Assembly: GCA_010356995.1 (NCBI GenBank)
Contig: ML996700.1
Coordinates: 620,001-684,000, forward strand
DNA: 64,000 nt
Reading direction: 5' to 3'
Source: Trichodelitschia bisporula
Lineage: Eukaryota
This document shows, piece by piece, positions 21,101 through 52,100 of the stretch; positions within the stretch are counted from its first letter, which is position 1; each line of letters begins with the position of its first letter. Both the position numbers and the translations under genes were made by a program. The notes beneath the pieces are model-generated. The model worked only from the letters and a program-made list of their open reading frames with translations. It was not told the origin of the DNA and did not search any database.

Positions 21101-23734
21101 GGCCGAGCGTCCAGTGCGCCTAAAGCGGGACGGACGAGGCATCGGCTTCGGGATGAATTTCGGTTTGGGCGCAGTCTCATGAGAAGCCTCAGGAGCCGGT
21201 TTATCATCCGCAGAAGAGTCGGAGGCCTCAGGCGAGGGTGTGCGTTCTCTCTCAACAGCTTCATCAATCACCTTCTCACTTTCCTTAGCATCACTATCAG
21301 TGTCGGAGCCCAGTTCGCTCAATGATGAGTCGCTGGCCTCCATGAGTTTCTGCACCTCCGTGGTGACTTTATCATCGCTCGTTGTTGGAGGAAATGAGCG
21401 CAGAGGAGTCTTGTACGTCTCAGAGAACTCCCTGTAGGTGGGGTACCCAGGGATGGAGGGGCGAGGCGGACGCAGCGGCTTGGGGATGAATTTCGGTTTG
21501 GCCATAGTATCAGAAACCGCACGAGCCGGTTTCTCATTCGAAGACTCGGAACGCTCGGAGGGCGAATCATGAACTTTCTCCAAGGCCTTTTCCTCCAACG
21601 CTTTTTTCTTCAAGCTTTTCATCATTGCTCCCTCCATGGCCCTCACTTCTTCAGCGGTGGAAAAACCATCATCAACGGGGGAGGACAAATTACTATCGTC
21701 GGAGGGCAGTTCACCTGGAGCCGAGTCGCTGTTCTCAACATGTTCCTCATGCTCCGATTTAACAACACTTTCAGGCCTGGCTGGTTCTTTCTCTCCCTCA
21801 TCGGAGGAAGGGCCATGGATTTCTCTAAAAGCTTCGTCGTCCTCGTTATTCGATGCGGGGCGATAGAGCTCCGAGTCCGGCTCAGGGGCTTCCTGGTCCT
21901 GATCCGTAATCGCCTCAGGAGCTGGAGGAGCCGGCGGCGTCAGAGCTGGCGGTGTCAGAGCTGGCGGTGTCAGAGCCCGGGGCGTCGGAGCCGGGGGCGT
22001 GGGAGCCAGTGGCGAGAGAGCGGGTGGGGTCTGCGCCTCTGGCGTCTGAGCCGGTGGAGTCGGCGTCTTCGGTGCCTTAGCCGGTGGCGTTAGCGTCTTG
22101 GGTGTCGGAGCCGGTGGAGTCGGCGTCTTGGGTGCCTGATCCGGTGGAGTCGGCGTCTTGGGTGCCGGAGCCGGTGGTGTCACCTTCTGCGGAGTTTGAG
22201 CCGGTGGCGTTGGGGTCTTCGGTTTCGGAGCCTCGGGCGTCGGAGCCTCGCTGACATGGTCGGGTGTAGATTCCCTAGAACTCTCTGTCCGGACATTTGT
22301 GCCGCTAGGGCTCGTCGTCTTCTCGACCCATTGCGCAGGAGGAGCTTTACCAAGGAAATTAGGAGGGTTCCTAACCCATTCAGGAGTGAGACGTGAGCTT
22401 GTCTTGGACTTCGAAGCGTCATTCTTGGGATCGGCAGCTGCGGTCTTCTTCGCTGGAGTAGTCTCATCAGCGGCAGACGCGGGAGCAGGCGCGGGAGCAG
22501 GAGCATCAACCGGAATCGCTGGCTCGGGAAGCTGAAGATCCTGAAGGGGAGGGGTGACAGCAGACACAGGAACAGACGCCAGGGTGGCGGAGACAGAAGT
22601 CGAAGGCAAATGTTTGTTCGAATCAACGGCCGAAATGAGCTTTCCAAGAATGTTCTCAATAGCCTTAGTGTTGGGAGAGATCAGCGGCGCCGGAGCCGGA
22701 GCCTGGGCAGGAGCCGGAGCTGCTGGAGCAGGCTGCACCGCGGTAGCACTCGAAGTAAACTTCTCAATGATCCGTCCAAGCGCTACGGCATTTGGAGACG
22801 AGATCAGAGGGACCGGGGCAGGAGCCGGAGCCGCTGGAGCGGACTTCGCGGCAGAAACGGTCGAGGCAAACTTTTCAAGGATCTGTCCAAGCGCTCTGGC
22901 ATTTGGAGACGAGATCAAAGTTACTTGAGCCGGAGCAGGGGCGAGAGCGGTTGTGGGAGCTGCGTTCGCATTGGATGTGACGGTGCCGGCAAGCTGCTCG
23001 AGCGCCCGGACCAAAGGCGACGGGATCGAGGGAGTATGGTTAACGACAATGACCGGCGTAGGATTGCGTCGAACCAAGGAGCGTCCACGGTGGTGAGGAG
23101 GAGACGCGGCGCGAGGGCGAGGACGGCCGCGAGGACTTGGGTCATCATCGTCATCATTGTTGTCAGATGGAGTGTCGTCGCGCGGCGCAGGTGAAAAGGG
23201 ACCGGGAGTCTTGGGCTCCAGACGTGGCGGTGCCTTAAAGCGACGGCCTGGTCTGACATCAGGGTCGCGAGGCGTCGGATCGCTCGGTGGATTATCTGAG
23301 GAATTGTCAGGGGTCAATGTCTTAGACGGGGGAGACGGCGTGGTCGGTTTTGGACCAGGCTTACTTTCATCACCGGACGAGTCGCCATTGTCAGTTCCAG
23401 GCTTGCGCGTGATGTCCACTGGAGGCTGAGGCTTGGTGCTGTTGGCAAAATAGTTGCCATTCTTCCACAGGAAGATGTTGTCGGCAACTTTGCTCCGTCC
23501 ATACTTTACCGCAGCCGCCAGCTCACTCTCGAGGTCGCTTGTGTCCATGATGGGAATGGGTGCCCGAGTCAAACGGCCGATGAAGACGATTGAAAGGGCC
23601 GAGAAAAACATGATTAGGAGCTGGGGAAAGAGAAAGGAAGCATAAGCTCCCTCAGAGAGGTGATCGTAAGCCATCGTATCAATCCGATACTGATAGGAGA
23701 AACCTGCGAGAGGTGTGTCGTTGGAAAACTTCAT
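15158..23734 (-). CDS. 2858-aa Pro/Ser/Thr/Lys/Glu-rich intrinsically disordered protein with N-terminal hydrophobic helix, PAM2-like motifs and RG-rich tail; function unknown
   Basis: 8.6-kb uninterrupted ORF; the internal repeats examined have unit lengths in multiples of 3; hydrophobic segment FLFPQLLIMFFSALSIVFIG near residues 34-53. Confidence 0.85.
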   Translation of the reverse strand: MKFSNDTPLAGFSYQYRIDTMAYDHLSEGAYASFLFPQLLIMFFSALSIVFIGRLTRAPIPIMDTSDLESELAAAVKYGRSKVADNIFLWKNGNYFANSTKPQPPVDITRKPGTDNGDSSGDESKPGPKPTTPSPPSKTLTPDNSSDNPPSDPTPRDPDVRPGRRFKAPPRLEPKTPGPFSPAPRDDTPSDNNDDDDDPSPRGRPRPRAASPPHHRGRSLVRRNPTPVIVVNHTPSIPSPLVRALEQLAGTVTSNANAAPTTALAPAPAQVTLISSPNARALGQILEKFASTVSAAKSAPAAPAPAPVPLISSPNAVALGRIIEKFTSSATAVQPAPAAPAPAQAPAPAPLISPNTKAIENILGKLISAVDSNKHLPSTSVSATLASVPVSAVTPPLQDLQLPEPAIPVDAPAPAPAPASAADETTPAKKTAAADPKNDASKSKTSSRLTPEWVRNPPNFLGKAPPAQWVEKTTSPSGTNVRTESSRESTPDHVSEAPTPEAPKPKTPTPPAQTPQKVTPPAPAPKTPTPPDQAPKTPTPPAPTPKTLTPPAKAPKTPTPPAQTPEAQTPPALSPLAPTPPAPTPRALTPPALTPPALTPPAPPAPEAITDQDQEAPEPDSELYRPASNNEDDEAFREIHGPSSDEGEKEPARPESVVKSEHEEHVENSDSAPGELPSDDSNLSSPVDDGFSTAEEVRAMEGAMMKSLKKKALEEKALEKVHDSPSERSESSNEKPARAVSDTMAKPKFIPKPLRPPRPSIPGYPTYREFSETYKTPLRSFPPTTSDDKVTTEVQKLMEASDSSLSELGSDTDSDAKESEKVIDEAVERERTPSPEASDSSADDKPAPEASHETAPKPKFIPKPMPRPSRFRRTGRSAYQEFMEKNRATSEQNRPAIETNPPAIETNPPATETNPPATETQEPVKGSDSPVSDDDSDAMEWQRTIEETIEKTFEEDSDEGSTPLPMRTSPSPPAGLPYVNSEDDIDDMLEHVGDESETSDVDAISPPASGPVPPPTPAPVVTPRPTYDPRLGRKIIPLRPSWVRPGTMTEFDREAAAPNREPLSSSGLAPPTPFAAPPLVPGARVPSVFDKPLDFTSKLPSLTKFIPQKADSSSSSSDADDDAGQGTKGGKKRPSVPLTAKHPNAVTFDNMLFEDLFRKKPDSPLSAPPTSTGPTGSAPTSAKLPPEIGAPQSFSLKKDKQFEFNLSGKAPKAKVPPKTPLLPQFSGPPPAKKPEASKPAAEVLKPTTQPEIPKQASQTTEPRPAAPGAAPPAPLPPATGASERFLLRKGKKFEFTPSSKAPKPKSPVKTPLFPQFSGPPPATKPTAAKPTAEAPKPAAEAPKPTPVVPESALRAPVPSPAVWEPRDTQSAKDDDDADDNDDSHNSLNEPPSSPVLNPQVTKEDLMNDLIEDFNRHSTRSSVPPQTSNQVPASTPSPAPAPTLDAPSSEEPLSRKQKKWRNLEEKKKEKKAAAMALAEKYKAEKAAAHLAAQEKQAAEKAAADKLAAEKAATDKLAADKAAAEKADAESARSKKVSSDRRKEAGECKKAELKAKKAAERQAAEDAHKAEEDAERQAAEKAAAARAIEEEIFEMAMRDATAAMDARKEMKRKEVERKAAEKRKQQETLEEEEMAKTTQQTESRTSANDDPPASYTNEEDFEKAAEKEADEGKAGEEEADERETGHEEDGHGEITEEVTTEDATTEEATTEDVTTEDISTEEVTTDDATVTPEPQVKHWDDLDSDEEGNFAEEYLKKTPIPESARTTPSTNSSDEPRPLPDRRPYIKSTLARRDAEEKQREESRERAQAKAAEMARSPATQTPAPEPAPTPTPALEPAPTPTTETLQEDDQAKANGEPDSESALPTLPPKPTESNPTEKSDQPLPTSTDDPAEGDSSSEGEIVDGPLNPRSDGKPLGSRWGDGGEYDLKYSESRPSKKPAPKRTESKRTTKSVPPPVDPKPIKKPGQPPPPVDPNPTEKPDRPPPTSTNDAVEGESSSEGEIVDGALNPRSDGKPLGSRWDEGSDYDLQYPESRPSKKPAPKPVDPKPTKKPDQLPPVSTDKPAEGDSSSEGEVMDGPMNEPYDGELGINSKWGPSGEYDLQHAKSKRTKKSAPRPIDPKPTKKPKRPLYTPPGKSKQGSTPTELEPAPTTPWGFPTKKRTRGRRRSVKKSAPTTAPTKPAPALASAPTEPAPAPASAPTEPAPAPGPKPAKKKLVAIKKPSPPLEECPPTPPSPVHTPAPPPVEPTWKAPTPPSMLEPTPTPSPSKPETAPAESAPAEPTPTPAPTATPLPPGKTPASALADWKNAPKIIQAADAANLRTFEEQLFEDLLQTPVKSSDVTQVHKKTSGGKAVSTETVKHTRATHSPTPPALSPSPAESSPAPSASPSPAKSSPTPTKSSSIDPNAKAFDPTSKPFNPNTKPFEPTTGKKPLGTLEDSRFAPENRTNNGQSTKPAPSKPAAPSAKPAWNRPQSGTSPSGAKPSPTPSSRQSSHTPSPAPSSGRSNPTPEKPATDNKKWSGVIDSKFAPGGEWDNRRDRQSGPAKGKGKGADGRGKGPHKPAPKPAPKPAPQAPEPPLKPALQPAKPAWSNGPPPSASPSPPKSGSTSSPSPTPPKSGPTPSPAPALPKSGPTPSPSPAPAKPTPTLSPSPTSPAKPSPTPAKPSPTPAKPSPTPTTSEPSSTEPSTTPSPAPSGLESPRYSTSAEPSSGKPQPTPEWSTVPPADRRAQRRENMQTTPTPAERNRGRGQGRGENRGRGGGGERGRGGDGRPREGHAGDGRPVTIGRGRGDSENRGRGDRRPRDDGGPRGDGRPGGEGRPRGDGRPGGDGRPRRDGRPGGNGGRPRGEGAERGEARGGGSSV
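15205..15345 (-). repeat. 18-bp coding tandem repeat encoding (R/G)GDGRP
   Basis: Recurrent plus-strand GGTCTTCC(A/C)TC units at 18-nt spacing. Confidence 0.85.
17370..18130 (-). repeat. three internal coding duplications; two copies are exactly 300 bp apart
   Basis: 17641-17760 is nearly identical to 17941-18060; the peptide G(D/E)SSSEGE(I/V)xDG occurs three times. Confidence 0.9.
21930..22235 (-). repeat. 30-bp and 15-bp coding tandem repeats (PKTPTPPA, LTPPA)
   Basis: Repeated plus-strand CCGGTGG..CGGCGTCTT units at 30-nt spacing. Confidence 0.85.
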
Positions 23735-35857: not shown

Positions 35858-38800
35858 TCAAACATGGTTGGTTTTGCCGCCGTGATCCCTTGACACGTTT
35901 TACCACATTGGTTCGTTATTCGCGTTTCTCTGGAACGAGTCAGGATGCATTGTGTTGGCCTTCCAGTTCGACATTCTCGATGGACTGACGAGTACGGTGT
36001 CGTCAGCCAACATGACACCCCTCAACGTCTCTGAGTGTTTGCGAACAGGTAGGCCGAAAAGTGTTGTTTTTCAGCATGGGTGCATATTTGTGTGGGGCTT
36101 AGGGAGTTTCGGATCGTTCACTCTTACTTCTAGAAGCTCTTGTGTATGGACTTGTGGCAGTGGTTCACCGGCGCTCTAAGGAAATAGACTAATGGGATTA
36201 TCTGCCTTTGCATCTTTGCTGTGACATGCGACGCTTGATTTAGCTACGTGACCTTCCTGCTGGGCCGCACCTTCCACTGCCAACAAACCGCCTTCGGCAC
36301 AAGCCGCGCGCCACCCACCGAAGACTCAAGCGCAGCCGCATCGCGCGCGCCCAATCACCTTCCCGCGCCGCACGCGGATACACCTCGCAAGGCTGAAGCT
36401 GCAGACGGGCACGACGGCAGCAGGAAGGCTAACCGTGCCCGAGGAGCGAGGCCAGGTTAGTAACGGACGCGGACCGGACGACGGCCTTAGGTTCACGTAC
36501 GGCCTGGGGAACGGCCGGTCGTGCTTGGTTGTAGCTATGGTGCGCGCTTTCAGAGGTCTCGCCCTGTGCGGCTGGGGGTGGAGCTCGGTTTAGCTCGGGT
36601 GGTTCAGGGCGAGGATGGGAGGCGGGCATATACCGGGGGCGGAATGGGGAGACTTCGGTTTCGATTAAGGGCGGGATGCGCCTAGGCGAGCGGGCTGGAG
36701 AACGGTAACCGGCCTTGTTCACGCGCGGGATCGGCTAGGGGCCGAGGCTAGGCGTGGAGGGGTGTGGCATAGGGGGTTGGGGATCTATGATGTCGATGAT
36801 GAGAAAGGGGAAGGGGTACTTGGGTTCTGGGCTTGGTACTGCGTATTGCGGGAAGGCAGGAGGAGTGTACGGAGTAGGGGGAGTGCGGAATGGGCTGGTC
36901 GCGAGGGTTGGGCGGCGGTGAGATGATTGCTCGCATGATGGGTGCACAGTGTGGGTCTGCTCTCCGTTGCCCGGGGAGGGATCCGCGATGCTCGACGCTG
37001 GGCTGCTGGGCTGTGGAGCCGGGGACTTGGCGGGCGAGGCTGCGAGTCGTCTGACTGTGGCTCTTTTTTTATGCTGGGGTTTGGAGGAGTGGGTCTGTGG
37101 GGAGGCGATGTTACGGTTGCGTGGGAGGTTAGTGATGGGGAAGGGAGGTTGAGCGGGAGGGCGATATTGCTTGCCGTGCCCCACTCATGCTTCGTGCTTC
37201 GTGCTTGCTTGCGGGGCGGGTCCCGCGCGTGCTTGGGCGGGCGGGTTTCCGCGCTGCGATGTTCGGGCCGGCTCGGGTTGGGATGGGATGCAGGCCGAAG
37301 GGCCTGCGGTGCACATGATGTGGTACAGCGCCCTACGGCGGTGTACAGTACATTGCCGTACAGCGTGCAGGGCCTTGCGAGGGGGAGTCAGAGACAGAAG
37401 CATCGCCGCTGCGCGGTTGGACGAGATGCGGCATCTGCTTTTCTGCAGAACATTCGGGCCCCAAGGCGGGCCGGGCGTGCTGGCTTGGGAATTCGGCCTA
37501 TCATGGGGAGATGCGGGGTCTGGCGTTGAGGCTGGGCCGTTGGGGGGTGCAGGGTGGGATCGCGGCGGGTGGACGACAGATCGATTTTTGGACGCGCTTT
37601 TTTTGGGAGTGATGCAGGGCGCTGGTGAGCTTGTCTCATCGCTGATTCTGCAGCTTGGAGTGGGACGTGGGGAAAGCTGTCAGATGTCAGGATAGCGACG
37701 TTGCATGTTGCGTCACAGTCTTTTGCTTCCTCCCCCCACATCTTCGGGCATCAAGTTCGTACATTTCTGCGGCGGGCAAAAAAGGAAGTGTGCCCGGCGT
37801 CTTTTTTGCTAAACGAAGGAACGTCATGGAAACCCGGGAGGCTGGGAAATCTGCATCTGGCTATCCCACGCGCGACTCATGCGACGGCCGTCAAGGAGAG
37901 GTGACGCGTGGCGGGCGTTTGGTGCAGTTCTGCAGGCTTTGGGCCTGGTCCTTGAAGACCCTCTAACGGGAGCCACTCGGGTGATGAGAATGATCAGCGA
38001 AGGGGGAGCTTAGGTTGCCCGGGGACGGTTTGGGGGGGGGTGTCATGCCCGCCAGAGTGGTTGTAACAAGTTAACTTTCCTGATATGTATGCGGTTACTT
38101 TTTTTTTCTGCACGTTTGCGCTTCTGCTGCCCTGAAGCAGTTGCATATACACAGTCGAAGGGCTGGGCGGCATTGCTGCTTCGAGGTGGAGGTACGTGAT
38201 TCGGCAACGAAGTGTAGCACATGCTATTTGCGTCCGGAGAGCTGGGGTTCGGCATCCTGTCATTGGCCGTCGGCTGCCCGGTGGAGGACACAGCCGGTAC
38301 ATGTACGGTGCGCATTTGCTGCGGATCTGCGGGTCTCTTCTAGGAGGGCCACGGGAAGACGTCGACATGGCCTCAGGGATGCGGGAGATGCAGCTTCGAG
38401 ACCTTGAGAAGAGAAATTAGGGGTCGAGCACGAGTGCGTAATTCCGAGAGTGTTCGACGCGGCAAACGCATCCTCCCCTGATGATGAAGCTCTCGCTGTC
38501 CGGGGCAAGCATCACTAGCAAAATTGTTAGCAAGGCGGAAAGTCATGACGCTACTGTACTCACCGTCCTTTGCTTAGCTATGACTAAATCTTAAGGATCA
38601 AGAGACTTCATTTAGTCTCCGCGAAGTTTAACTCAAGCGTCCGCGTAGCCGCGAAACGCAAGCAAGGTACGCGACACTGTGACGACCACGGTGGTGCGAG
38701 TGTGAGTGGCCAAGCGCATTCTCTCCGCACCGCGTAACCACCAGCAAAACTTTAACTCAAGGTCCTTACGCGTTGCCGTGAAGCGCATGAAGGTATGGAT

Positions 38801-41800
38801 ACATTGTCACCACCGCAGCACTCGTGGTTCGTCCCAATCTCTCCGCACCGCGGAACCGCCAGCGCGGCAACGCCCGATCTTCGGAGATGGTTCGCGTCCG
38901 GGCCGAAAGCGTCAGTGCCACCTGCCACGCGCACGGTGCCCAGACCGCAGGGTTAGGGGTATCTGGGAAGACCGAGCGTTTATGATACGGGGGACCTGGC
39001 GTAGTGGCAGGCCCGCGTCAAGGATTCGATTCCCTGACGGCCACCAGGCGGCAAGGCTGCAGCAACGCAATTAATCTACCTATCTGATGGTGGCCGACGG
39101 GCGGCGTGTGGCTGGGAGTGTGGAGAAAGGCGCATAAATAATAATGCAACCACCCCACGCGAGTATGGCATCCGAATTGTGCGAGGAGCAGCAACCTGTG
39201 AACGGCGTTAAGAACGGCGTGCCGCTCTAGCCGTACATATCCCTCTTTTGCCAAGGAATGGCGTGCATACATGCCGCAATGCCGCGGTTCCTCCTTGATA
39301 CTCGTTCTTTGGTGGGCGGTAGATGCCCAATACCGCGTCACCAGCAAGTTATTTGCGCTTGGCGCGCGGCCGATTTACAGCGAGACGGAGATTCGAAGAT
39401 GCGCGTCGTGCGTCAGCGACAGCAGTACAGGAGAAATAACGTGAACAGATCCCTCGAGAGGGGCCGGTGACAGCATGAAATGGCGATAAGTGGAGAGTCG
39501 GAGGATCACAGCGAAGATGGACATCCCGCAGGATGGACACATCGCGATCCTAAGCTGAAGAGGCACAGAACAAAGGAGGAATCTCCCACGTTGTTTGGCG
39601 GCCGTGTACCGTAGTGGCCGCTGAGGTGCGGAGGTACGTCCGGGACACGCTGGCACGGCATCTTCCAGTGGCCGTGCTGTCTGAGCCTCTCCCGCTGGGC
39701 AACCTACCCCGCGTCGTCCAAGTGCCAAAACTGTGCACCATTAGCCTAAGATTCCCATGGACGATCGACGCCGATGCTGCAACCAGCTCGATGAGATGCG
39801 TCATCAACAGTTTCGCCCGTTCCCTGCTAGCTGCTCTACAAAGTTCTGTTCCTGTATATGAAAATGTGGTCTCAAAGCTGCGTTCTATGCCCGACCTCAG
39901 CGGTAAAAGCGGTTGCATCTCCGCTTCACAATGGCCCGGTAGATGGAAATATTCCTTCCAATGATTCCGCAATTGCTATCCCTGCCAAGACTGAATCCAG
40001 AAATAAGCACATGTGCATTCGGTTCGGCGAGACTTTGCATCAATTTACCCCGAACGACTCCACAAAGGATCAGGGGAACGGACGAGCTACCGTACAATCC
40101 AAATAGTTCCAAATTCCAGGAGGGATGACGCGTGGGTGTAATGGTGTATGAAGACACTTCGGTATGGAGCGTCTGGATAACCGAGGAGCTCCTCCTGCAA
40201 AGCAGCTGAACGGGCGGACGTTTCGCCGACCATCCACGAGGCGAGGAGATCATTCAGCCCTTCCCTGTTGAGGTAATTGTGGCTTGTCGCTTGTCCTTGC
40301 TGGCACCCCACCGCACGCGCACATCTTGGCAGAGCGGGTCAGAATTGGCTAGGCGCTCTAACCTGATATGGGGAAAGCCGAGCAACTGCGAGCCAGGCAA
40401 AAGCGAGCCCGCAGGAAGGGCGGGGGAGAGGGGAGGAATGAGGGCAAACCTGTCACCGCTCAAAATCAGCGATCGGAGGTGCCGTATGACCGCCGTATGC
40501 CCGTTCGCCTGTGTGGAAGGAAAAGTCTCCGAAGGGATGAGGTGCATCATATCTGGCGACATGTCCAAGGATTGCTCTGGTGTGCGCAATACGGTACACA
40601 TCGCAGATCGATGGCGCTTCCGCGTCTAAACTTAGCCTGTACGGTACTGTATCCTGCCTTCTTTAGGTACATGCCAGCTACCCTTCCTCCATTCCCGAGC
40701 AACGGCTGCTAAGGCAAACGGCCCTTGCACGACAGCAAATCCGGAGCGCGGAGGCTCAAAGTTGGCGCTATAACCGCCTCGGTCTCATGGGCATCTGATA
40801 TGTATGTGGGGAATTAACAAGGTCTGACTTCGGAGCAGTGGAACCAGCTGCCCGGATCTTGATTCCCCGTGGTAGCTCCTTACTGAAAGCCAAGCTCTTG
40901 AATTTGCCAAGGGAAATGTTGTGGCTTTCGCAGTCGTCAGCAGCCAGGGGTCCCTGCTTCGTCGCTTCTTCTGGGGAGCTTCGACGCCACCACTTTCTGG
41001 CATGCGCAAATCATCTTGGCTTTGCCAGTACCAGTGTTCCGCGGGATGCCTCGTTCGGCGAAACGTGGTGGGGAGCGGGGGAGGGGGTGGGGATATGAAG
41101 GGAGGCGGGGCAGCGGAAGCTCCACCAGATAGGATGGCATCAGCAACGTGACCTCATCTCCTCCCACCTGCATCATCCAGCCTTTCGATCGCCCATGTCG
41201 TGATTTGCCGGCCCGTGAGGTGGGACACATCGATTCCAGCCTCGGGCGCGTTATCGGAGTGGGCCGCTTTCTGCAGTATCGTTGTCATACCGTGCATGTA
41301 GTCGTATCTCCGTTGCCGAAAGAGGCCGAAATTTTTTGGGCACCACGGGGTACGGTACAGCGAAGACCCAACGTGCAGTAAAAGAAAATGCAAAGGCGGT
41401 TGACATTGATCTCACGGGACCTGTTAGGATGCACACAATGCATTGATGGCCGACTGGCATCGATGCACTGCACGGGTAGTATGAAGCATCCGCGTGGGAT
41501 ATCGCGAGCCAGTACGGGAAGCCGATGCGCTGTTGCTTGCCCTCGCAGGGCCTCGCATCGATCTCCAATCAGCGCGGTTAGCCCGAGTCAAGTATGGTGG
41601 GTACCCCGGCGCACGCTGAAGCGGAACGCGATCCAAGCGACTCCTCCTCCTGATGACATTTTCTGCAGCCCGCTTTGCCGCCGAAACGGCGGAGAGGCCT
41701 CCATGTAGGATAATGATCCTTCGCCAGGGCTGTTGATGGGAGGGGAAGCAAGGCTACTGGATACTTCAGGCCTCGACGGCAAGGAGAAGTTTGCCGTTCA

Positions 41801-44800
41801 GGTGCCCTCATGACACTATGACAGGCATGCCGTATTGGACATGCCGCATCCCACCTCTCTAGGATATTTCGAGGTAGCATAGGATGCGTATGGAGTAAAA
41901 TTGCTTCGCCTTTTGCCAGCAGGGTCTATGTGTTGCCGTCGGCGGCGCATGACAGCATGACATGTCTTCTCAGGCGTCGGTTGCGGGGGTGTGATAGCCA
42001 ACGGTCAAAGTGCGCAGAGCGTCGGCTCAGTCAGTGTCCCAGTGCTCCCATGCGATGGAGGGATCAATGCGTGGCGAAATGCGTTCTTCTCAGACCCCTA
42101 CAATGCTGGGTAGTGGAAGACTGTCGGGAGGCGCGGCTTTGACATGAGATGCTGGACTAGAATGGACGGGACCGTCGTGAGGCATCGTGTTGAAGGCGTC
42201 AAGAGCAGACTGCCGGCGTGCAGCTAAGACTCGGTCTAGGGAGGCTCAGAACGTCGAGGGGCTCAAGGAAGGGAGTCGCGAGTCGAAGTCGAGTCTATCG
42301 CGTGTTTGGAGATAGGCCTGTGGGGAAATGTGAAGCTCTTCGGCCTCGATAGTTGTGCCTGTGTGTTCCGCCTCGAACGTCAGGCAAAGGATAGGGTACG
42401 GAGTACTCGTACTTGTCGTGGCTGTGCGAGACAGGCACCTGTTCTTTGCAAAGAGCCCTTCCGAAACGTTTTCTGTTGGCTGCGTCGCTGCTGCCTCTCT
42501 TGGTCGATATGCAGCCATCCCATACTACCTTTGAAACGTCGCCTCCGAGAAGCAAACGAACGAATCTGTCGAGAAAATACCGGACGAAAAGGAAGCCTCT
42601 CAACACACACCACGATCCCCCATTCTCCATACAGGTACTCAACTCCTACTCCCATTCGTGCTGCTTCCTTCCCCCCCAATCCCCACCCAGCCGACCCACT
42701 GCTGAACTCCCAAAGATCCCCGTGGGTCTCTTTCACCGCCCTTTGCAGCATCCTTCGCCTCTTGTCTCGCCCTTCGGTGTGCCGTGCCGAATTTGCCGCC
42801 TCTGCCGCCTCCGTCGCAGTCGATTGTCGAAGCTATCGTGGCAAGGGCCCTTCAAGAGCATTCATGACGTTGGGAAAGTGTGCGGGAACGTTGGGTCTTA
42901 GCGGCTAGCTTCTCGTTGGCTTCCGCCCGGTCCATCTTTAGTGGCATCGATTGCGCAGCTAAACCCTCAGTCTCAAGTAAACCCCTCCCTTCTCTTGTCC
43001 TCCACTCGCCCATTCCCTCATCCCCTTCCCTGGCACCCCCAGCACTTCCCTATCCTTCTCTCAGGCTTTGTTTTGTTTGAGGATGTGCATGTAGAAGAGA
43101 GAAAGAGAAAAAGTCAAGGCCTGGAACTTAAGAGGGCACATCAACGGTCTTGCTCCTTCAAAACAAGCGCCCCTCGTGCTAGTCTACCCGTAGACTAAAC
43201 TCTTGCGGGCCTGGCTCCAAGCGTGAAGCTGCCTATCATCGCACTTCAATCACTGCAGACTGGCTCTCGGGAGCTAACTGACAGTGCCATTTGGCTGGCG
43301 CTGAGCTTGATCTGACCTCCCGCACTAATAGCACCCCCATCGTCATCTTTTACCTTGACAACCCCGCACCTTTTGCACATCAGCGCAGGTCGCTCTGCCA
43401 CGTTGCTGTTCTCGTGTTGCACCGTATACGAGTATTCTACACACCACGGAGGAACGAGATAGAGGGAGAAAAAAAAACCGAGGCTTAACCTTCAACGGCT
43501 GCAGTAAGAAGGCAAGTTCTCGCCCAGTCGCTTCGAAGCATTATTTCTGTCATCCACTATCCAATGCATCTCGTGTGGTGATCCCACCGCAGGCTGCACG
43601 AGTTCTCATCTCACCCCTCCCCTCCCCCCCTCCTCAATCTCCCGCGCATTCCCCTCTGGTCAGAATCATTTTAATTGTCGCCCTTGCTTACGTCTGCACC
43701 AAAGCATCGAGAAGTTTAGAAGGGACTCTCATTGCTGCTGCGGGTAGCCCGTCCCACCCAGTTTTCATTTCGCACGGTCCTTGAGTTCGTCGAACCATCG
43801 ACGGGTTTGCATGAGGTGCTAGCCGCTAGCTTCGCGTCCGTCTCCTCCGCTTGCCTGCCGAGATCTGCGACGAAAAGGCCCGTCATCATTGCCGACGGAA
43901 GCAAGCACGTATCAGGTAACCTGATAATCCACCCCTAACCGACCGCTCGGCTCCTCGTGGAACAGCAGGTGGAAGCGTGTGTGTGGTGGAGAAGGCGCAA
44001 GGAGCAAGCCATTGATCGCCAGTCGATACTCCACCAGAGGCACTAGCCAGCAAACCCCCGCCGAAGCCGTTGTGGGCGCCGCTTCCGTTTTCCCGCTCTT
44101 CACTTCGGTTCGGCAACGCGGCGTACCCGCTGGGGGGGGAAGAGAGCTAGGACCACTGCCTTTTTCTCATCATCTGGACAAGGATTGCCGCGAGATTGTC
44201 CGATTCAAGGCGCAAATCCACGTCAGTCGACAACGCCCCTTGAAGCAGAAAGTGGAAACGAGGCCATTTGGGGGAATCCGTGGGGACACCCCTTCCTTTT
44301 CCTCGCTTGTTGCTCAGGGTCTTTCCGGGGTTCCGGTGTTGCTTGGGGGGAAAGAGCATCTTTGCGACTGATAAAAAAAAGCTTCAAGAGTGTGAAAAAA
44401 GAGAAAAGGTCAGCCCAAATCCATCGACAAGGCAGACAGACTGGCAGCTGGCACGCGCACCTTTGTCATCCCTCCATAACCATCTAACCCCCCTCCCTCC
44501 ATCCCTCACATCCCCCGCCAGCATTTGTCCACAACAAAAGAACAATTCGCACGTCTCTCTCTCTTGCAGTGCTGCAAATTACACCTCTTGCATGAGAGGG
44601 CAAGGGGGGCGGTGGAGTATTCGGTCCTTCTTCGCACCCTTGACAGCTCGAATTCGCCCGAGGACGAAGGTCATTGGACAGTACGGGGCTCCGCCACTCT
44701 TTCTATCGTCTGTGCTGGACCCGCCTATCCATTTTGTTTGTTGCCTGCCAGGCCTGCCACCCACGCAGTCGCGTTCCCCCTCCACTTCGCATCGTGCCCG

Positions 44801-46402
44801 CCCGGGGTTGAGTACCGGTGTTCGTCCTTCGTCGTCGTTGGTCAGCGCTCCCGCCGCAGTGCCCGTGCACCCGCCTCCCACACCACGGTGACCACCAAAC
44901 AGTACACCACCCCCACCAAAAGTGACCCGCCCTCATCTCGTCCGCCTTCGGAGGAACTCAATCAGCGAACTGCAGGATAGCATCTATCCTCTCCCACCAT
45001 TACAAGTCGTCGTGGGCAACCGAATATCTTGTCATTACCTTTTCTTCCGCCTTCAACTTATCAATTCTCTCTTCCCACTTTTGCTTGGGACACCTGCGCA
45101 ACACTCTCATCGAAGCCTTCTCCGTCATCTCATCGCGGCGGCTTCAGACTCGGCGGCTTCACAATCGCGAAGTTGCTTCGGGTTGTGCACTAACGCCAAA
45201 GGCGCCGCGCGCCTCTCGTCGATAGTGGTGCCAATCCTGGCACTCCCGCCTCAGTCCCGTGCCACGACCACTGGGCCTTCATCCATACAACTGTCGTCGT
45301 AAGCACTTCCGCCACAGCGCGGCAGCTTTGACAGTAAAGGCGCGCCCAAGTAAAAGCTTCTGAGCGTCAAGGCGCTAGCATCGACTGTCAAGGGAGCATC
45401 AGTTTCAGTTGGCAAGAGTGTTGTCACAGTGCCAATCCAGAATCAGGCACCGTAGACTCCCCTTTTGAGGACTCCCGAAAATCCCCTTCCCGGCTCTCTT
45501 TTTACGCACATCAGCGCGAGCGTGCGTGTCTCCTGGGATCATCGTCTCTCTGGTCAATCTGTTCAGGAGGAAGGAGGCTGTCGCTAGCCGTGCCTGATCA
45601 CTCGACTTTGTACTTTTGTTGTGCTCGTTGCTTGGTTGCAAGCGTGCAACCCCCGCCTGCCTTGAGTTCCCGTCGTCGCGCAAACTTCCCCGCTAAGTAC
45701 CGCGGGGCGCCAACATATCCTAGGAGTAGTGGGGAAGGGTCTGGCAACTTTAGTTCACCTACGAGCTAGCTTGGCTCTACGGGGAGGCTGAAGAGTGCCC
45801 CAGGGAAGCCAGTGTGCCAAGAAGTTGTTCCTGAAAGACCATCTCCGACAAACGGTGGTGGATCTGGGTCTTCGGCGAGATATCGAGACGTGGGATCTTG
45901 AGGGGGTGGATTTATACACCCTTGCGGTTCGTCCCGGGAAGAGGAGCGAAAGCCAGTTGAATTTGGTTGGATTGTGGCCCACCGAAGAAGGACCGCGAAG
46001 AGTCGCTGACCGTCCGCACCCGACGCTGCCGAAAGCTTGGGTCGCCGCGCACATCCACCACAGTAACCGGCTTCTGCATCTTCCATCATTGTCGCAAGAT
46101 CAGCCCTTCATCTGCTGGGGGGGGGGTTTTGTGGATTCGTAGGCGGCTGTTCTCGGTGAAATTTCGAAGAGGGTTGTGCGGCCAAGTAAAGGGCGAAGTC
46201 GAGTCACGACAGCGCTGCTTCTGCGCTGTGAACCGAGAGTTGCGCAATTGTCAGGAAAGAGGAGGATTTGAGAGTAACGACCAGACCACAGTTTACAAGC
46301 GGACAACGCAATCGAAAGAGAGAGAAGAACGAAAACGTGGAAGTGGCCTCGGGGTTTACGGCGTCTGTCGACATCGTCAAAGTTTGCCCGAGAGAGACGT
46401 TG

Positions 46403-46432
46403 CGTGTGTGTGTGTGCTTGTGTGTGTGTGTG
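46403..46432. repeat. interrupted (GT)n microsatellite
   Basis: cgtgtgtgtgtgtgcttgtgtgtgtgtgtg. Confidence 0.9.
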
Positions 46433-46764
46433 TTTTGTTATCTTGCAGAAGGCAAATCTGCCCAGCAGGTTACGAGTACGTCGGCAGCCTCGCAAAGGAT
46501 ATTCAAAGCAATTCGAGGCGTTGGTCACCACTTACGGTATCTCCCCTTCCCAACCAAAAGTTTCTACCACGGTTTCTCTACCGAGTAACTACCTTTCTGC
46601 CACGAAGACCACCAGGGCCAACTGGATTCGCCAGCGAGTCATTCCACACAAAAAAACACACACAAAAAACGGCAAACCAAGAAAGTTCACAGGGCTTCGT
46701 CCGGCTGTTCTTGTACCGTACCCATTATCTGCGCAGCCACCATCACCTTATCCACGTACAGTAC

Positions 46765-46810
46765 CCACCACCACCACCAACACCACCACCACCGCCAGCA
46801 ACCACAACCC
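46765..46810. repeat. imperfect (CCA)n microsatellite
   Basis: ccaccaccaccaccaacaccaccaccaccgccagcaaccac. Confidence 0.85.
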
Positions 46811-47453
46811 TCAAGCAATTTGCTCTCAACCCTGGTTACTGCGAAAACGTTGTGGTGGGCCCACACAATCAAGTACACTAGAGGCCAATATTCACCAACC
46901 TCCGTTGCCACTAGCCTGCTCCCCAGATCATTCGTCTCCAAATTTTCAGTTGCCATCAAGGGCCCCGACAACCAATTACAGCGCTATTGCCCCTGCTCCC
47001 AGTCTACTGCCGAACGCCGGCCCACGCTCAATCCTCGTCAGAGCGAAGCCTGTCTGCAAGTCTGTAGGGACACTGCGAGAACAAGAAGTTAGTACCGCTC
47101 ATCACTCCGCACTTCACGAACATCTCTTCCCATCTGCACCATACTCTGGTCCACGGGGTCCATACCAATTATCACTTTCCAAACGCACGTCACCACGCTC
47201 GATATCTCCTCCAGATCCGCATCTGAATCCCAAGCTCAAAGGACCCATTCGGGAGTCGGAGTGGCGGCTAAACCAAGACGACTCGTCTGCCCCACGTCTG
47301 CACACACGAATTTGGGAAGTTCTGAAGTAAACATTTAGCTTAAGTATCTGGGTTCCCGCCACCAAGCCCGACACCACCCCACTACGATCAACTACTACGA
47401 ACTTGTCCTTAGCTTGTGCGTCGAAGTCATCGCTTGCACCCGGCGGTAACCTT

Positions 47454-49171
47454 ATGCCTGCGTCAAAATACGCGCCTCTCAACCCCGCGCACTTGGCCAA
47501 CACCAACCCTAGCACCACCCGTTCCATGCATCAAAACGGTCACCAGCCGCCCATGGATAACAGACAGACGGAATATCCGCCCCCAGGTTTGACTTCACCT
47601 TATCCACCATTCCCCGATCAGCAGTCTGAAGGCCATTCTACAGATCCGGCGTCTGCGCAGTACCCGCAGGCGCAAGACTCGCGCGCCCCGGCGAATTTCT
47701 CCTCCTCTGCCACGCCCACGTCCGAGTACGGGATGCCTCCTTCGTCAGCTCGCTCAGGTTCCTTCAACGACTATATGCGTCCCTACGCATCGCCTGCTGG
47801 GCCCGGAGCGCCTGGAGGTCCTATGCCTCAATCAAATAGTCCGTCTCTGCCTTTGCGGCCTGATGGTCAAGCAAACAACCATGAAACACATAACATGAAG
47901 TCTGACACCGAAGTTCCCATAGACCCTTCAATCGCCTCCGCGAGTCCGACATACACGGCGCCCCACGTTTACCCCCCGTACCAAAATCCTCACGAAATGC
48001 AACAGCACTACGGCCCGCCTCCGCATCCTGTAGTGTACAGTCGTCCTGAGTGGGCACCTGGCAGCTTCCAGTCGCCGCATATGCAACAACATTATCACCC
48101 GGCTACGACTGGCCCTCCTACGCCGAGCATGGTTTCTCCGGGCCACCGGCCGCCGGTGAGTGTATGAGAAACCTACAAACGATCTGTCGCCTTTTTGCGC
48201 CTCTAACATGGATACTCTAAGCAGAATAGTCACCCTCTCTCGACCGTTTACTCGTTCGTTCCCATTCCCGGCACAACGCAACATAAGCGGCCCCGTCGCC
48301 GGTACGAAGAAATTGAGCGCATGTACAAGTGCGGCTTCAATGGCTGCGAGAAAGCTTACGGTACTCTCAATCACCTGAACGCGCATGTTACGATGCAGTC
48401 CCATGGCGCAAAGCGGACCCCCGAAGGTGAGTCAGCCATATACGTTTCCCTGCGCGTGCGCACGTGTAGCACTTGTTAGATCGTTTTCGGCCGACGAGCC
48501 GACCAGTCCTCCCGCCGCTTGTCTTGGACCAGCCGAAGCCCATCACCTGTTTTTTGTTCCTGAGCGTTCTTGAACTTAGCCGCGCTGGGTGGAACGGGAG
48601 CTAGTTCAGCGTGTTCCCCCACAAACGTGGCGGTAGCCCACTTGCACAAGAGCTTGTATACTAACTTCATGCTTGCTAGAATTCAAGGAGATTCGGAAGG
48701 AGTGGAAGGCTAAGAAGAAGGAGGAGGAGGCACTCCGGAAGGCTGAGGAGGAGCGGCTGCGCCAGCAGGGCGAAGCACGTGGCGCGACGGACTCATCTGA
48801 TGGCCCTGCTCAAGGCTATGGACAGATGCGCTCAACGCTTGGTCCGCCGCCTTCGATGGGTGGCCCGCAATTACCCCCAATCACCTCTGCGTACGGTCCA
48901 AGTGGTCAGTCCTACACGGCGGGCACGAGTGCTCAGACGCAACAACAGTACGCGACGACGGCTTCAATGGACGGCATGGGACAGTATGCGCCTACTTCCA
49001 ACCATGTCTCCGGGAATGGCGGTAACAGTTACAGTAGCTATCCCCCGCCCGCCTACGGACAAGGTGGCAACGTCTACCAGCCTCCTCCTCCCCGTAAGGC
49101 TCCCTTTCCTTGATGATAGATGTGGTTAACACGATGCAGAGGATGAGAAATACAACAATTACCAGCAGTAG
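47454..49171 (+). CDS. CON7: single C2H2 zinc-finger transcription factor of the Con7/Vta2 family; introns 48156-48224, 48427-48679, probably 49094-49139
   Basis: VYSFVPIPG..HKRPRRRYEEIERMYKCGFNGCEKAYGTLNHLNAHVTMQSHGAKRTPE|EFKEIRKEWK. Start could be ATG 47454 or 47526. The last intron gives PQDEKYNNYQQ*; unspliced, the stop is at 49113. Confidence 0.88.
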
Positions 49172-52100
49172 ATGTGGTCTAGACGTGTTTGTCAACCCAT
49201 TTCGCTGTTTGCTCGTTGGCTACGGATGCAAGACCTCGCAATTGGAGTATACCCCTGATACTCGGACTTTAGTGAAAACTCACCGAAATTTATCAGTGTC
49301 GGGGTGGGTGGCACTTTAACTTTGCGCGTTAGGTTCAATTGCATTGTTGTGGCACAGAAGGGTTGCTCTTTTTTCGTCCCTTGGCTGTGTACCATGTCCT
49401 TTTGTCTATCGCCTTGCTTGTTTGTGCTCTCCTCGCGCTACGCTTTCCTTGTTCTTGCATTTTCAGCGGATAGGGGTGCCGGTAATCGGCTGGGTCCAAG
49501 GTGTTTGGGGACTGGGGGTTGGGGGGGCGGATCGGTGAAAACGAAAGGGGATTCTACGATTCCACGACCGTATTCATACGTGTCTACGGCCTACATAATT
49601 TGGGATTTTGGGGTAGACTGGAAGGGTTGGGGAAAGGAGGGGAATTCAGCGAACAAGTTGTCAGAGGCCTGTTTTCTTCTCGGGACTTTTCCCGCAAGTT
49701 GCAATGAACCATTCTTGTTCGCGATGTTGTATTGGCTTGGGTCCCGAGATAACCAAACAAGGGAGGTCAATGGTCAGGTTGTACTCTTTTTTCTCATTCT
49801 TTTGAACGCGGAACTGCTCGCTTTTCTTTCATCTTCTCCCTTTGTCCCGATGCTTCACGTTGACGATTCGGGTGGCTAGGCAACGCTGTGGTTACAACAG
49901 CTCACCGGCCCTCAATCCTCGTCGCTTGTACAATAACTAAAATCCGCTACGGGAGAAAATCGAGATTCGAGAATGAAAGCGATGGAACGCCCAACGCAAA
50001 GAACTGCCGCCTGTGTCCGACATCCTCTTGTCCCTCCCTCCCAATCGCCCTTCCCTTGTGTGTCCGCTCGTCCCTCCGTCTCTCACCTCACACAGCCAGC
50101 CCCTCCACCGGTGTCCAAGTCATGGATCTGGGTTCTTGAATGCACCACCGAGCTTCTCCGTCCCTTCGCACCCGTACGACCGCGACGTGGCGCCGGTGTC
50201 GCCCTGTGAAGCCCACATGACACCGCGGCCTCCGCTTCGGAGAGCAACTGGTGCCGGCGCCGTGAGTTTCGCGCGGTATAGACTAGGATCACTATGGCTG
50301 TGTGTGCCCTGCGCATGGGATTCTCGCCATCGCGGGGGCACTCATGCGTGCTACGGCATACTCGCCCGGTGTATACGGCGTTCTGTCCGATGTGTGGCGT
50401 GAGAGCGCGATGGGCGCCGGACGGGGTTGCCTAGTCATAGAGCCGGTGCTATGGCCCTGGCGATCGCGATTCTAGTAAGGACAGGGCGATGAGTCCGGCG
50501 ATGGGGCCCACGATCTGGCGCGGGGATCGTGGTGCAGTTGACTAACCTTAGTTCTATGATGTAGTGAGAGACGGCGCGATCCCCGGCGTGGATTCTCCGC
50601 GCCGGTGCCGGCGCTGCTTCTAGAGGGACGCGTAGGGCTGGGACTAAGGGAGCTAAAGGGCTGGTGCGCGGACGGGCCACTTCAGGCATCGCGTGGCATG
50701 TACGGATGTATACGGTACGTACGTAGTATATCTCCTTGCGCTCGTCCGTCATGGCTATCGCGGTATTCCGCATCGTCGTCCCTATCATCACTCCCACTCC
50801 CTACTGCACCGAACAGCCGTACCCCCCCCCCGCACAACGGAACTTGAAACACGGCCCTCACACCGGGGCCACCGCGGAGACAAGAACGCGAGGCCGGCAA
50901 TAAGGTACGCGGCTTTTGGGCCGGAGCGCGCGTACCGCCCGGGCATGACCTCGTGCCACGGCGGGCTGCGCACTGCATGGGAAATGAGCGGACTGGAGAG
51001 GGGATTCTGGACCGAAGGCGTACTGCTGCCCCGCGGTGGTAAAGCGGGACGGCGCTTTTGAGTAGGGCCGCGGAGGCGTTGAGGGCGCGTTTTGAGGCGG
51101 GGTGGGGTGGTTCGGCTCGGGGGATGTGGTGCCGATGCGAAATACGGGACTCGGATCTGCCGAAGAGCAATACGGCGTGGTAACACCCCGAGGTTCAATC
51201 GTAAGAATTGCTATTGCTATCACTTCTCCCTCCAAATCGCCATCGCAGTATCACAGTGTTAACACACCCCAGACACCCTCCCCACACACCCCCGCCGCGC
51301 CCACCCTGCAGCTCCCTCACACAGGCAGCCGGCGCCACAGCCCGTTTGACGGGTTGGTTACACAGCATGAAAGCGGGCGCGCGCCGTGCGGGCGCGGACG
51401 GACTGAGGGTTCGCGGGGCCCGGGCGTTTTTTTTGTGAGACGTGGGCGTTGTGGGCGGCCAATCAGGGCGAGGGCATTCGCTGCCTTGGGGGGAGGGGGA
51501 TTTAGCAAGAGGGGAGAGGGGGGTACTGTGTACGCAACTTAAGTTGCTTACACAGTGCGGTGGGCGGGTACGGCGGCCGTGGGGCCTTGGCCTACTATGG
51601 GTACAGTGTACTTTGCTGGGCTTTGCTGGGGTGGGGAGCTGGAAGGGGCACGAGGGGTGTGTGAGGGAGGGGGATGCATGCGGTGCCCGCAAGCTGCAGA
51701 TGGAGATGGAGATCTGGAGGTCGGTTGGGCGAGGGAGGGGTAAGGGGAGGGCGGGGGCGGTAGGGCAAGGCAGCCTGACCGAGCGCTGAGTGGCCCCCCC
51801 GCGTCGCCTGCAGCGCGTGGGGCGCGGGGGCGCCGGGCTCCGGGCGATCAAGCCCTATCAGCGAGTGGGAATATGGCCGTGAGGGCTGGGAATAGGGCCG
51901 CGGGGTGATATGGCTATTTCGCATTGCTCAGGAGGGAGAAGGGTTGGTTAAGCGGGTTGCGCTGCAGATACGGTGCTGTCGGCGAGGCCGGCGTGGCGGC
52001 GTGGTTGGGCGTGCGGCGTGAAGGAGGAGCGTGGGAAAGAGGAGGAGCGGAGTACCGGCCTGCCTGTGAGGCCGGGCTGCGTCTGCGGCGAGGCGGGGTC

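Follow-up and report, generated by a model that had tools for sequence, protein, structure and literature searches.

The CON7 gene of Trichodelitschia bisporula, which encodes a C2H2 zinc-finger transcription factor, was analysed in a window of 64,000 nt, by which we mean the whole stretch of DNA studied here (positions 620,001 to 684,000 of contig ML996700.1, assembly GCA_010356995.1). The coding region lies at 47454..49171 on the plus strand, as placed by RNA joints, translation and the annotated protein, and the 2859 nt immediately upstream of it (44595..47453, plus strand) do not contain a single ATG. We consider it likely that this stretch is the main part of a long 5′ leader of CON7 and that scanning by ribosomes is what keeps AUG out of it. 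A first-pass annotation of the window had proposed a sense leader of several kilobases under selection, and the proposal now finds support in the strand-specific recurrence of the ATG-free state among orthologs whose leaders cannot be aligned, in an RNA contig that joins the stretch to the coding sequence, and in the non-coding character of the stretch.

Results

Consecutive ATGs on the plus strand fall at 44592 and 47454, a distance of 2862 nt by direct count. The absence of ATG between them and the frequency of CAT in the same sequence had both been reported in the first-pass annotation, and both were confirmed by the recount (0 ATG and 38 CAT in 44595–47453). Its figure of about 40 expected ATGs compares with an expectation of 34.8 when computed from base composition and 24.5 under a first-order Markov model. 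Dinucleotide-preserving shuffles of the stretch (n=2000) contained 24.3 ATGs on average (SD 4.0) and never fewer than 11, against 0 in the real sequence, and the Poisson probability of finding none ranges from 2e-11, when conditioned on dinucleotides, to 8e-16. Both dinucleotides from which ATG is built are present (AT 100, TG 157); the base that follows AT is A in 12 instances, C in 58, T in 30 and G in 0, and ATG is the sole trinucleotide missing from the stretch. Elsewhere in the window the runner-up ATG-free gap measures 952 nt, and gaps without CAT reach 670 nt at most.

Orthologs of CON7 were sought by scanning metagenome contigs with the zinc-finger exon, which found 411 relatives, and the best 80 of these were used. 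Using full-length proteins of cDNA-like contigs as tblastn queries, and after inspection by eye, we could place a start codon in 64 of the 80; these loci have N-termini of the MS.AY.. or MDxRQ.EY type. At least 1200 nt of upstream sequence was available for 26 loci, or 20 distinct loci once near-identical pairs had been merged. Counting ATG upstream of CON7 orthologs had been suggested as a check in the first-pass annotation, and on repetition the desert recurs in 15 of the 20 distinct loci, each with zero ATG for at least 1200 nt before the homologous start and with 14–41 CAT. Thirteen of these deserts are closed by an ATG, at 1210, 1434, 1460, 1623, 1675, 1735, 1742, 1762, 1806, 1906, 1940, 1961 and 2140 nt, and two, no shorter than 1215 and 1442 nt, run to the contig end. 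A further locus, L046, has one upstream ATG in 1909 nt, which opens an upstream open reading frame (uORF) of 3 codons, and each of the 36 loci that have a placed start but less than 1200 nt upstream is ATG-free up to the contig end.

The same result is obtained in a region defined independently of ATG gaps: in the fixed 1200 nt before the start, 16 loci including the window together contain 0 ATG against 139.1 expected. The second-lowest trinucleotide in this test, TGA, stands at 0.68 of expectation, mostly from the missing ATGA, and CAT occurs as often as expected in the individual loci. Beyond the 5′ end of the ortholog deserts the density of ATG is abruptly normal again. When the window and all loci of at least 9 kb are taken as background, the ATG-free or CAT-free gaps of at least 700 nt are these same leaders, save two, one being a gap that directly adjoins a desert and the other the runner-up gap of the window (17432–18384, plus strand). 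The latter is the antisense of an open reading frame (ORF) on the minus strand (15158–23734), a single frame of 2858 codons with a low-complexity product rich in Pro, Ala, Ser and Lys.

The leaders themselves have diverged widely. Compared by blastn with all 80 loci, the window leader gave zero matches, and the ortholog leaders fall into at least six groups without mutual alignment, with partial alignment at 70–90% identity within groups. Named by their nearest protein, the groups resemble the Pleosporales (Pyrenophora, Alternaria, Epicoccum, Paraphaeosphaeria), Venturia, Teratosphaeria-like fungi and more distant lineages. Since leaders of different groups do not align, it is the absence of ATG that is conserved rather than the sequence. 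The comparison argues that the AUG-free state is maintained by selection, because 15 of 20 loci lack ATG over at least 1200 nt, because none is found where 139 are expected, and because the leaders are non-alignable.

Two further observations concern the ortholog leaders. The part nearest the start, some 100–430 nt, aligns at 70–83% across Pleosporales-like loci (L003, L024, L033, L046–L048, L050, L054, L056, L057 and L077), and the distal parts do not; a counterpart of this proximal part was not detected in the window. It may represent a conserved element, active either in the RNA or as a proximal promoter. In two records, L064 and L070, which are identical over their shared 1662 nt upstream of the start, a Pleosporales-type leader of ~1.4–1.7 kb is reversed, with only the last ~130 nt before the start in direct orientation. 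These records have a CAT desert of 1265–1479 nt and 22 ATGs in ~1.5 kb, and L064 is the remaining one of the 20 distinct loci. For L069, from a third record, the contig reaches 130 nt upstream of the start, and these 130 nt match L070 at 100%. The reversal may equally well stem from ambiguous assembly at the flanking repeats or from a real inversion; under either reading, the case shows that the ATG-free property is tied to one strand of the sequence.

The evidence from RNA consists of Logan contigs from two runs (X1 and X2) of one sample (83–88% of sampled words), and both are identified as RNA by the fact that the contigs skip the six GT-AG introns of the CON7 coding region (47587–47643, 47839–47922, 48156–48224, 48427–48679, 48984–49034 and 49094–49139, plus strand). 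One X2 contig of 3150 nt, with a depth of 290, runs through 44461–46364, 46536–47583 and 47641–47838, joining the desert to the spliced coding sequence. Its depth compares with 374 at the 3′ end of the gene, and in X1 the leader contigs have depths of 624, 749 and 778 against 1112 at the 3′ end. The desert is transcribed at a level near that of the coding sequence and is physically contiguous with it. Near the 5′ edge the X1 depth is 107 to the left of 44758 and 624 from 44815 onwards, and X2 depth rises from left to right through 3–10 (42–43.2 kb), 38, 61, 128 and 163 before reaching 290. Among the orthologs, cDNA-like contigs likewise carry a spliced coding sequence preceded by a leader that is ATG-free to the contig end, the longest being L033, in which at least 1442 ATG-free nt are attached to the spliced coding sequence. 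Two cDNA-like contigs could be compared with genomic ones at the start codon, with 100% identity over 432 nt for L003 and L048 and 99.8% identity over 461 nt for L009 and L067.

The start codon at 47454 is well placed, because the annotated T. bisporula protein of 449 aa begins with the same residues and because of exon identity: the N-terminus of that protein, MPASKYAPLNP, is that of the ORF opening at 47454 (compared by eye), and the zinc-finger exon (48225–48425) is 100% identical to it. The same exon is 94% identical to CON7 of Fulvia fulva and to PnCon7 of Parastagonospora nodorum, and the CON7 of the window has N-terminal motifs (MS.AY.. and MDxRQ.EY type) in common with named CON7 proteins. 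In Pfam the protein gave only a weak match to Zap1_zf1, below the cut-off.

The stretch 44595–47453 is non-coding. Its three frames hold 11, 15 and 22 stops, no protein-level conservation of leader translations was found among the orthologous loci by tblastx or tblastn, and small ORFs on both strands of the stretch gave no Pfam match. Two weak tblastx pieces to L033 (E 3e-4, 25–36 residues) were judged to be noise. A search of 41000–50500 against Rfam at E<=0.1 returned 0 matches, so that a known structured RNA element was not encountered there. In composition the leaders favour C over G, with a GC skew of -0.12 to -0.27 in all 13 leaders tested, and their predicted folding is weaker for the sense RNA than for the antisense RNA. 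Sense leader windows fold no more weakly than mononucleotide shuffles, and structure avoidance beyond base composition was not found in them. A (CCA)n repeat lies within the leader at 46765..46809 (plus strand).

The last upstream ATG, which forms the 5′ edge of the desert, opens an ORF of 99 codons (44592..44891, plus strand) with no Pfam match, and a CT-rich repeat (44467–44514) lies just upstream of it. Just inside the desert the pyrimidine fraction rises from ~0.50 to 0.59–0.65, and a search for promoter signals at the 5′ edge found nothing beyond this modest rise. Further upstream, a distal zone (42512..44591, plus strand) is itself poor in ATG, with 5 against 19.9 expected (P ~8e-5) and 44 CAT. 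The first-pass annotation had counted about six ATGs back to ~42600, and six are indeed present, at 42864, 43083, 43089, 43564, 43811 and 44592. The five within the distal zone open uORFs of 14, 3, 1, 5 and 3 codons, the 5-codon one lying inside an intron. This intron (43512..43704, plus strand, 193 nt, GCAAGT...AG) is supported by an RNA joint, 43508>43702, in both X1 and X2; the joint is canonical only as a plus-strand GC-AG intron, and its removal takes out the ATG at 43564. RNA contigs cover the distal zone at lower depth than the leader, and the plus-strand polarity of the intron implies that sense transcripts also extend upstream of the desert at this lower depth. The zone from 42.5 to 44.6 kb is possibly an extension of the leader, belonging to a rarer transcript with a more distal start.

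In the neighbourhood of the locus, where 76 ORFs were scanned, the ~11 kb upstream of CON7 (36000–47400) contain no Pfam-recognisable ORF, and the closest Pfam-recognisable gene on the left is a DEAD-box helicase at 33.8–35.6 kb. X1 RNA contigs extend leftward into this Pfam-blank region, to at least 41036. On the other side, the 3′ untranslated region of CON7 occupies 49172..49982 (plus strand), its end being approximate and taken from the end of an X2 contig; depth falls from hundreds to below 10 past ~50190.

Three of the six coding-region introns, those of 57, 84 and 51 nt (47587–47643, 47839–47922 and 48984–49034), are in frame, and they are spliced in the RNA contigs and retained in the 449-aa protein, which probably reflects alternative splicing that alters the protein. 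This agrees with known CON7 biology, in which extensive alternative splicing of the coding region is a feature of Magnaporthe Con7p, PnCon7 and FgCon7; two reports give four transcripts for CON7 of P. oryzae (PMC8475275) and 13 predicted isoforms for the C. fulvum homolog (PMC11694984). The first six ATGs of CON7 (47454, 47526, 47553, 47733, 47775 and 47823) are in frame without exception; that at 47454 lies in a weak context, with C at -3, and the third corresponds to the start of several orthologs (MDxRQ...). Leaky scanning at these exon 1 ATGs may produce N-terminal isoforms, or the run may be a mere product of codon usage; as a sign of leaky scanning it was set aside, since codon usage in a region rich in Pro, Gln and Ser could yield it.

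Discussion

We propose that the CON7 leader would be read by conventional scanning, in which the 43S pre-initiation complex loads at the cap, moves linearly and initiates at the first AUG. Any new AUG arising in the leader would divert ribosomes from CON7 and would be purged by purifying selection, so that 2.9 kb would remain without ATG, on the sense strand alone. The main sense start would lie near 44.5–44.8 kb, just downstream of the last ATG, and a rarer distal start would lie around 42.5–43.5 kb. To our knowledge, selection against start codons in a scanned leader is the only process that strips one strand of ATG over kilobases and in many lineages and yet leaves the sequence free to drift; an intron, an untranscribed promoter, an antisense RNA or a leader bypassed by an internal ribosome entry site (IRES) would not carry this constraint. 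We infer the strand of the abundant RNA, the position of the transcription start site and the function of the leader length.

Several observations weigh against this reading, and the foremost of them come from RNA. The contigs are unstranded and derive from a single sample, and the sense of the abundant RNA, its cap and its start site cannot be read from them. In addition, two introns read GT-AG on the minus strand only. One, of 79 nt (44382..44460), is seen as the joint 44381>44461 with CT..AC ends at a depth of ~106–107 in both runs. The other, of 171 nt (46365..46535; GTAAGT...AG on the minus strand), lies within the desert and includes a (GT)15 repeat at 46404–46433; its joint 46364>46536, also with CT..AC ends and unambiguous in position, has a depth of 1085 in X1 and 290 in X2, which is about that of the leader. 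By arithmetic on depth bins the unspliced 171 nt are uncovered in X2, and in X1 a contig stops exactly at 46364, a sign that the unspliced path is also present in that run. Since both introns have minus-strand polarity, a spliced antisense RNA overlaps the CON7 leader, and a large share of the desert RNA in this sample may be antisense, the long sense leader then being a minority isoform. The comparative evidence has its own exceptions. Six loci (L037, L041, L042, L043, L053 and L071; three distinct) are true orthologs without the trait; their proteins are 89–99% identical to Aureobasidium proteins, and in this Aureobasidium-like clade ATGs occur at -164, -420 and beyond, at 15–17 per 1200 nt against 14–15 expected. 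The ATG-free leader is not a universal trait. Furthermore, the comparison covers loci that all resemble Dothideomycetes.

The alternative that survives best, although we think it unlikely, is that many start sites are spread across the 2.9 kb, in a broad or multiple promoter that gives rise to shorter leaders, so that an ATG would be barred throughout, any part of the stretch being liable to fall within one of these leaders. The stepwise climb of the X2 depth described above is as this model would predict, as is the fact that cDNA-like ortholog contigs begin anywhere from 80 to 1442 nt from the ATG, and the distal ATG-poor zone could be accommodated in the same way. Start sites are not mappable from contig ends, however, and one contig covers the whole stretch at uniform depth, just as the leader of L033 is found in one piece of at least 1442 nt. 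The abrupt return of normal ATG density at the 5′ edges of the ortholog deserts is likewise what would be expected of a dominant distal start.

We attach considerably less probability to the possibility that the stretch is transcribed chiefly into a spliced non-coding RNA, antisense or divergent, that starts near the 5′ end of CON7, that the CON7 leader itself is short, and that the lack of ATG has some other cause. The two minus-strand introns, with junction depths near the total depth, speak for such an RNA, and the minus strand, with 38 ATGs and no Pfam-matching ORF, fits a non-coding product. This explanation nonetheless gives no cause for the absence of CAU from an antisense RNA, when the lack of ATG is a property of the CON7 sense strand that is conserved in orthologs with non-alignable leaders, and the contigs link the stretch to the coding sequence through a plus-strand splice. 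An antisense RNA and a sense leader can coexist, and the two readings are not exclusive. Should both be present, the overlapping antisense RNA may add transcriptional or post-transcriptional control.

Slightly more doubtful still is a role for IRES-like internal initiation, for non-AUG uORFs or for an N-terminal extension in place of plain scanning. Very long leaders are poor substrates for scanning, and the CON7 frame is open for 350 codons (46278–47330) save one stop. Against this, if ribosomes entered internally near the start, there would be no need for AUG avoidance 2–3 kb upstream, near-cognate codons are not depleted (CTG 1.22 times and ATC 1.44 times expectation), and the stop codons in all three frames, the lack of protein-level conservation and the lack of an Rfam family are as reported above. 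Finally, chance or base composition, whether through low AT or TG content or through a mutational process such as repeat-induced point mutation (RIP), has a negligible claim and is refuted by the shuffles and by the fixed-window count in orthologs: no point in its support was found, both dinucleotides are present, and the expected frequency of CAT excludes a symmetric process such as RIP.

If the leader is indeed scanned, an AUG-free distance of ~3 kb in many lineages implies that ribosomes traverse all of it and that their route is under selection. By analogy with WOR1 and UME6 of Candida albicans, so long a leader probably lowers the translation of CON7 and makes it tunable, and it may serve as a platform for RNA-binding proteins. 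Con7-type factors reportedly govern sporulation, virulence and the formation of infection structures in several plant pathogens, and work on their regulation has so far addressed transcription and splicing; translational gating of CON7 now becomes directly testable. The locus also offers an unusually clean natural case in which selection acts to keep a codon absent and not to preserve a sequence, and it illustrates that a plain count of ATG against CAT can expose long leaders from DNA alone.

It is tempting to go further and to regard the drifting AUG-free leader of 1.2–2.9 kb, found in much of the Dothideomycetes and accompanied here by an abundant spliced antisense RNA, as one half of a conserved sense/antisense module. 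The length of the leader would then throttle, by way of scanning, a master regulator of development and pathogenicity, and its loss in the yeast-like Aureobasidium lineage would go together with a change in developmental control. This is a tentative suggestion that we ourselves would rather doubt than defend. If it were true, genome-wide searches for strand-specific ATG deserts could find translationally gated regulators without RNA data.

Depletion of upstream AUGs (uAUGs) from eukaryotic 5′ untranslated regions (UTRs) is general and is understood in terms of the scanning model. The CON7 leader resembles this general pattern in its strand-specific avoidance of AUG before the start and differs from it in scale. 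In Aspergillus fumigatus, according to one report, the mean 5′ UTR is 126 nt long and 5′ UTRs of 2111–2150 nt hold 30–34 uAUGs (PMC12810187), in contrast to the 0 in 2859 nt seen here. Long leaders on regulators are also known from the uORF-bearing leaders of GCN4 and cpc-1 and from long undecoded transcript isoforms (LUTI). Unlike these, the 2.86-kb CON7 stretch is devoid of uAUGs and uORFs, and uORF-mediated control is not encountered in it, although a 5′-extended CON7 isoform carrying the distal uAUGs (42.5–44.6 kb, including the 99-codon uORF at 44592) could act in a GCN4-like or LUTI-like manner.

The closest known cases are found in C. albicans, where WOR1 is grouped with CZF1, RFG1, EFG1, FLO8 and UME6, all with long 5′ UTRs. 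According to one study, the 5′ UTR of WOR1 is 1978 nt long, is without AUG uORFs and reduces both the efficiency of translation and the association with polysomes, and other morphogenesis regulators with long 5′ UTRs behave similarly (PMC4552353). CON7 resembles WOR1 in its probable kilobase-scale AUG-free leader and in encoding a master morphogenetic transcription factor. It differs in belonging to the Con7-type C2H2 family and to another fungal class, in having a leader ~45% longer, in an AUG-free state conserved across lineages without conservation of sequence, and in the spliced antisense RNA that overlaps the leader; for WOR1 a translational effect has been measured, whereas the CON7 leader is known here from sequence and RNA contigs. 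Our literature searches, which covered CON7 leaders and, more broadly, long 5′ UTRs and uAUGs in fungi, found no paper describing an AUG-free CON7 leader. Long AUG-free leaders on fungal master regulators are thus already known, and CON7 adds a new and extreme case in a different regulator family, in which selection is supported by comparison of orthologs and an antisense RNA overlaps the leader.

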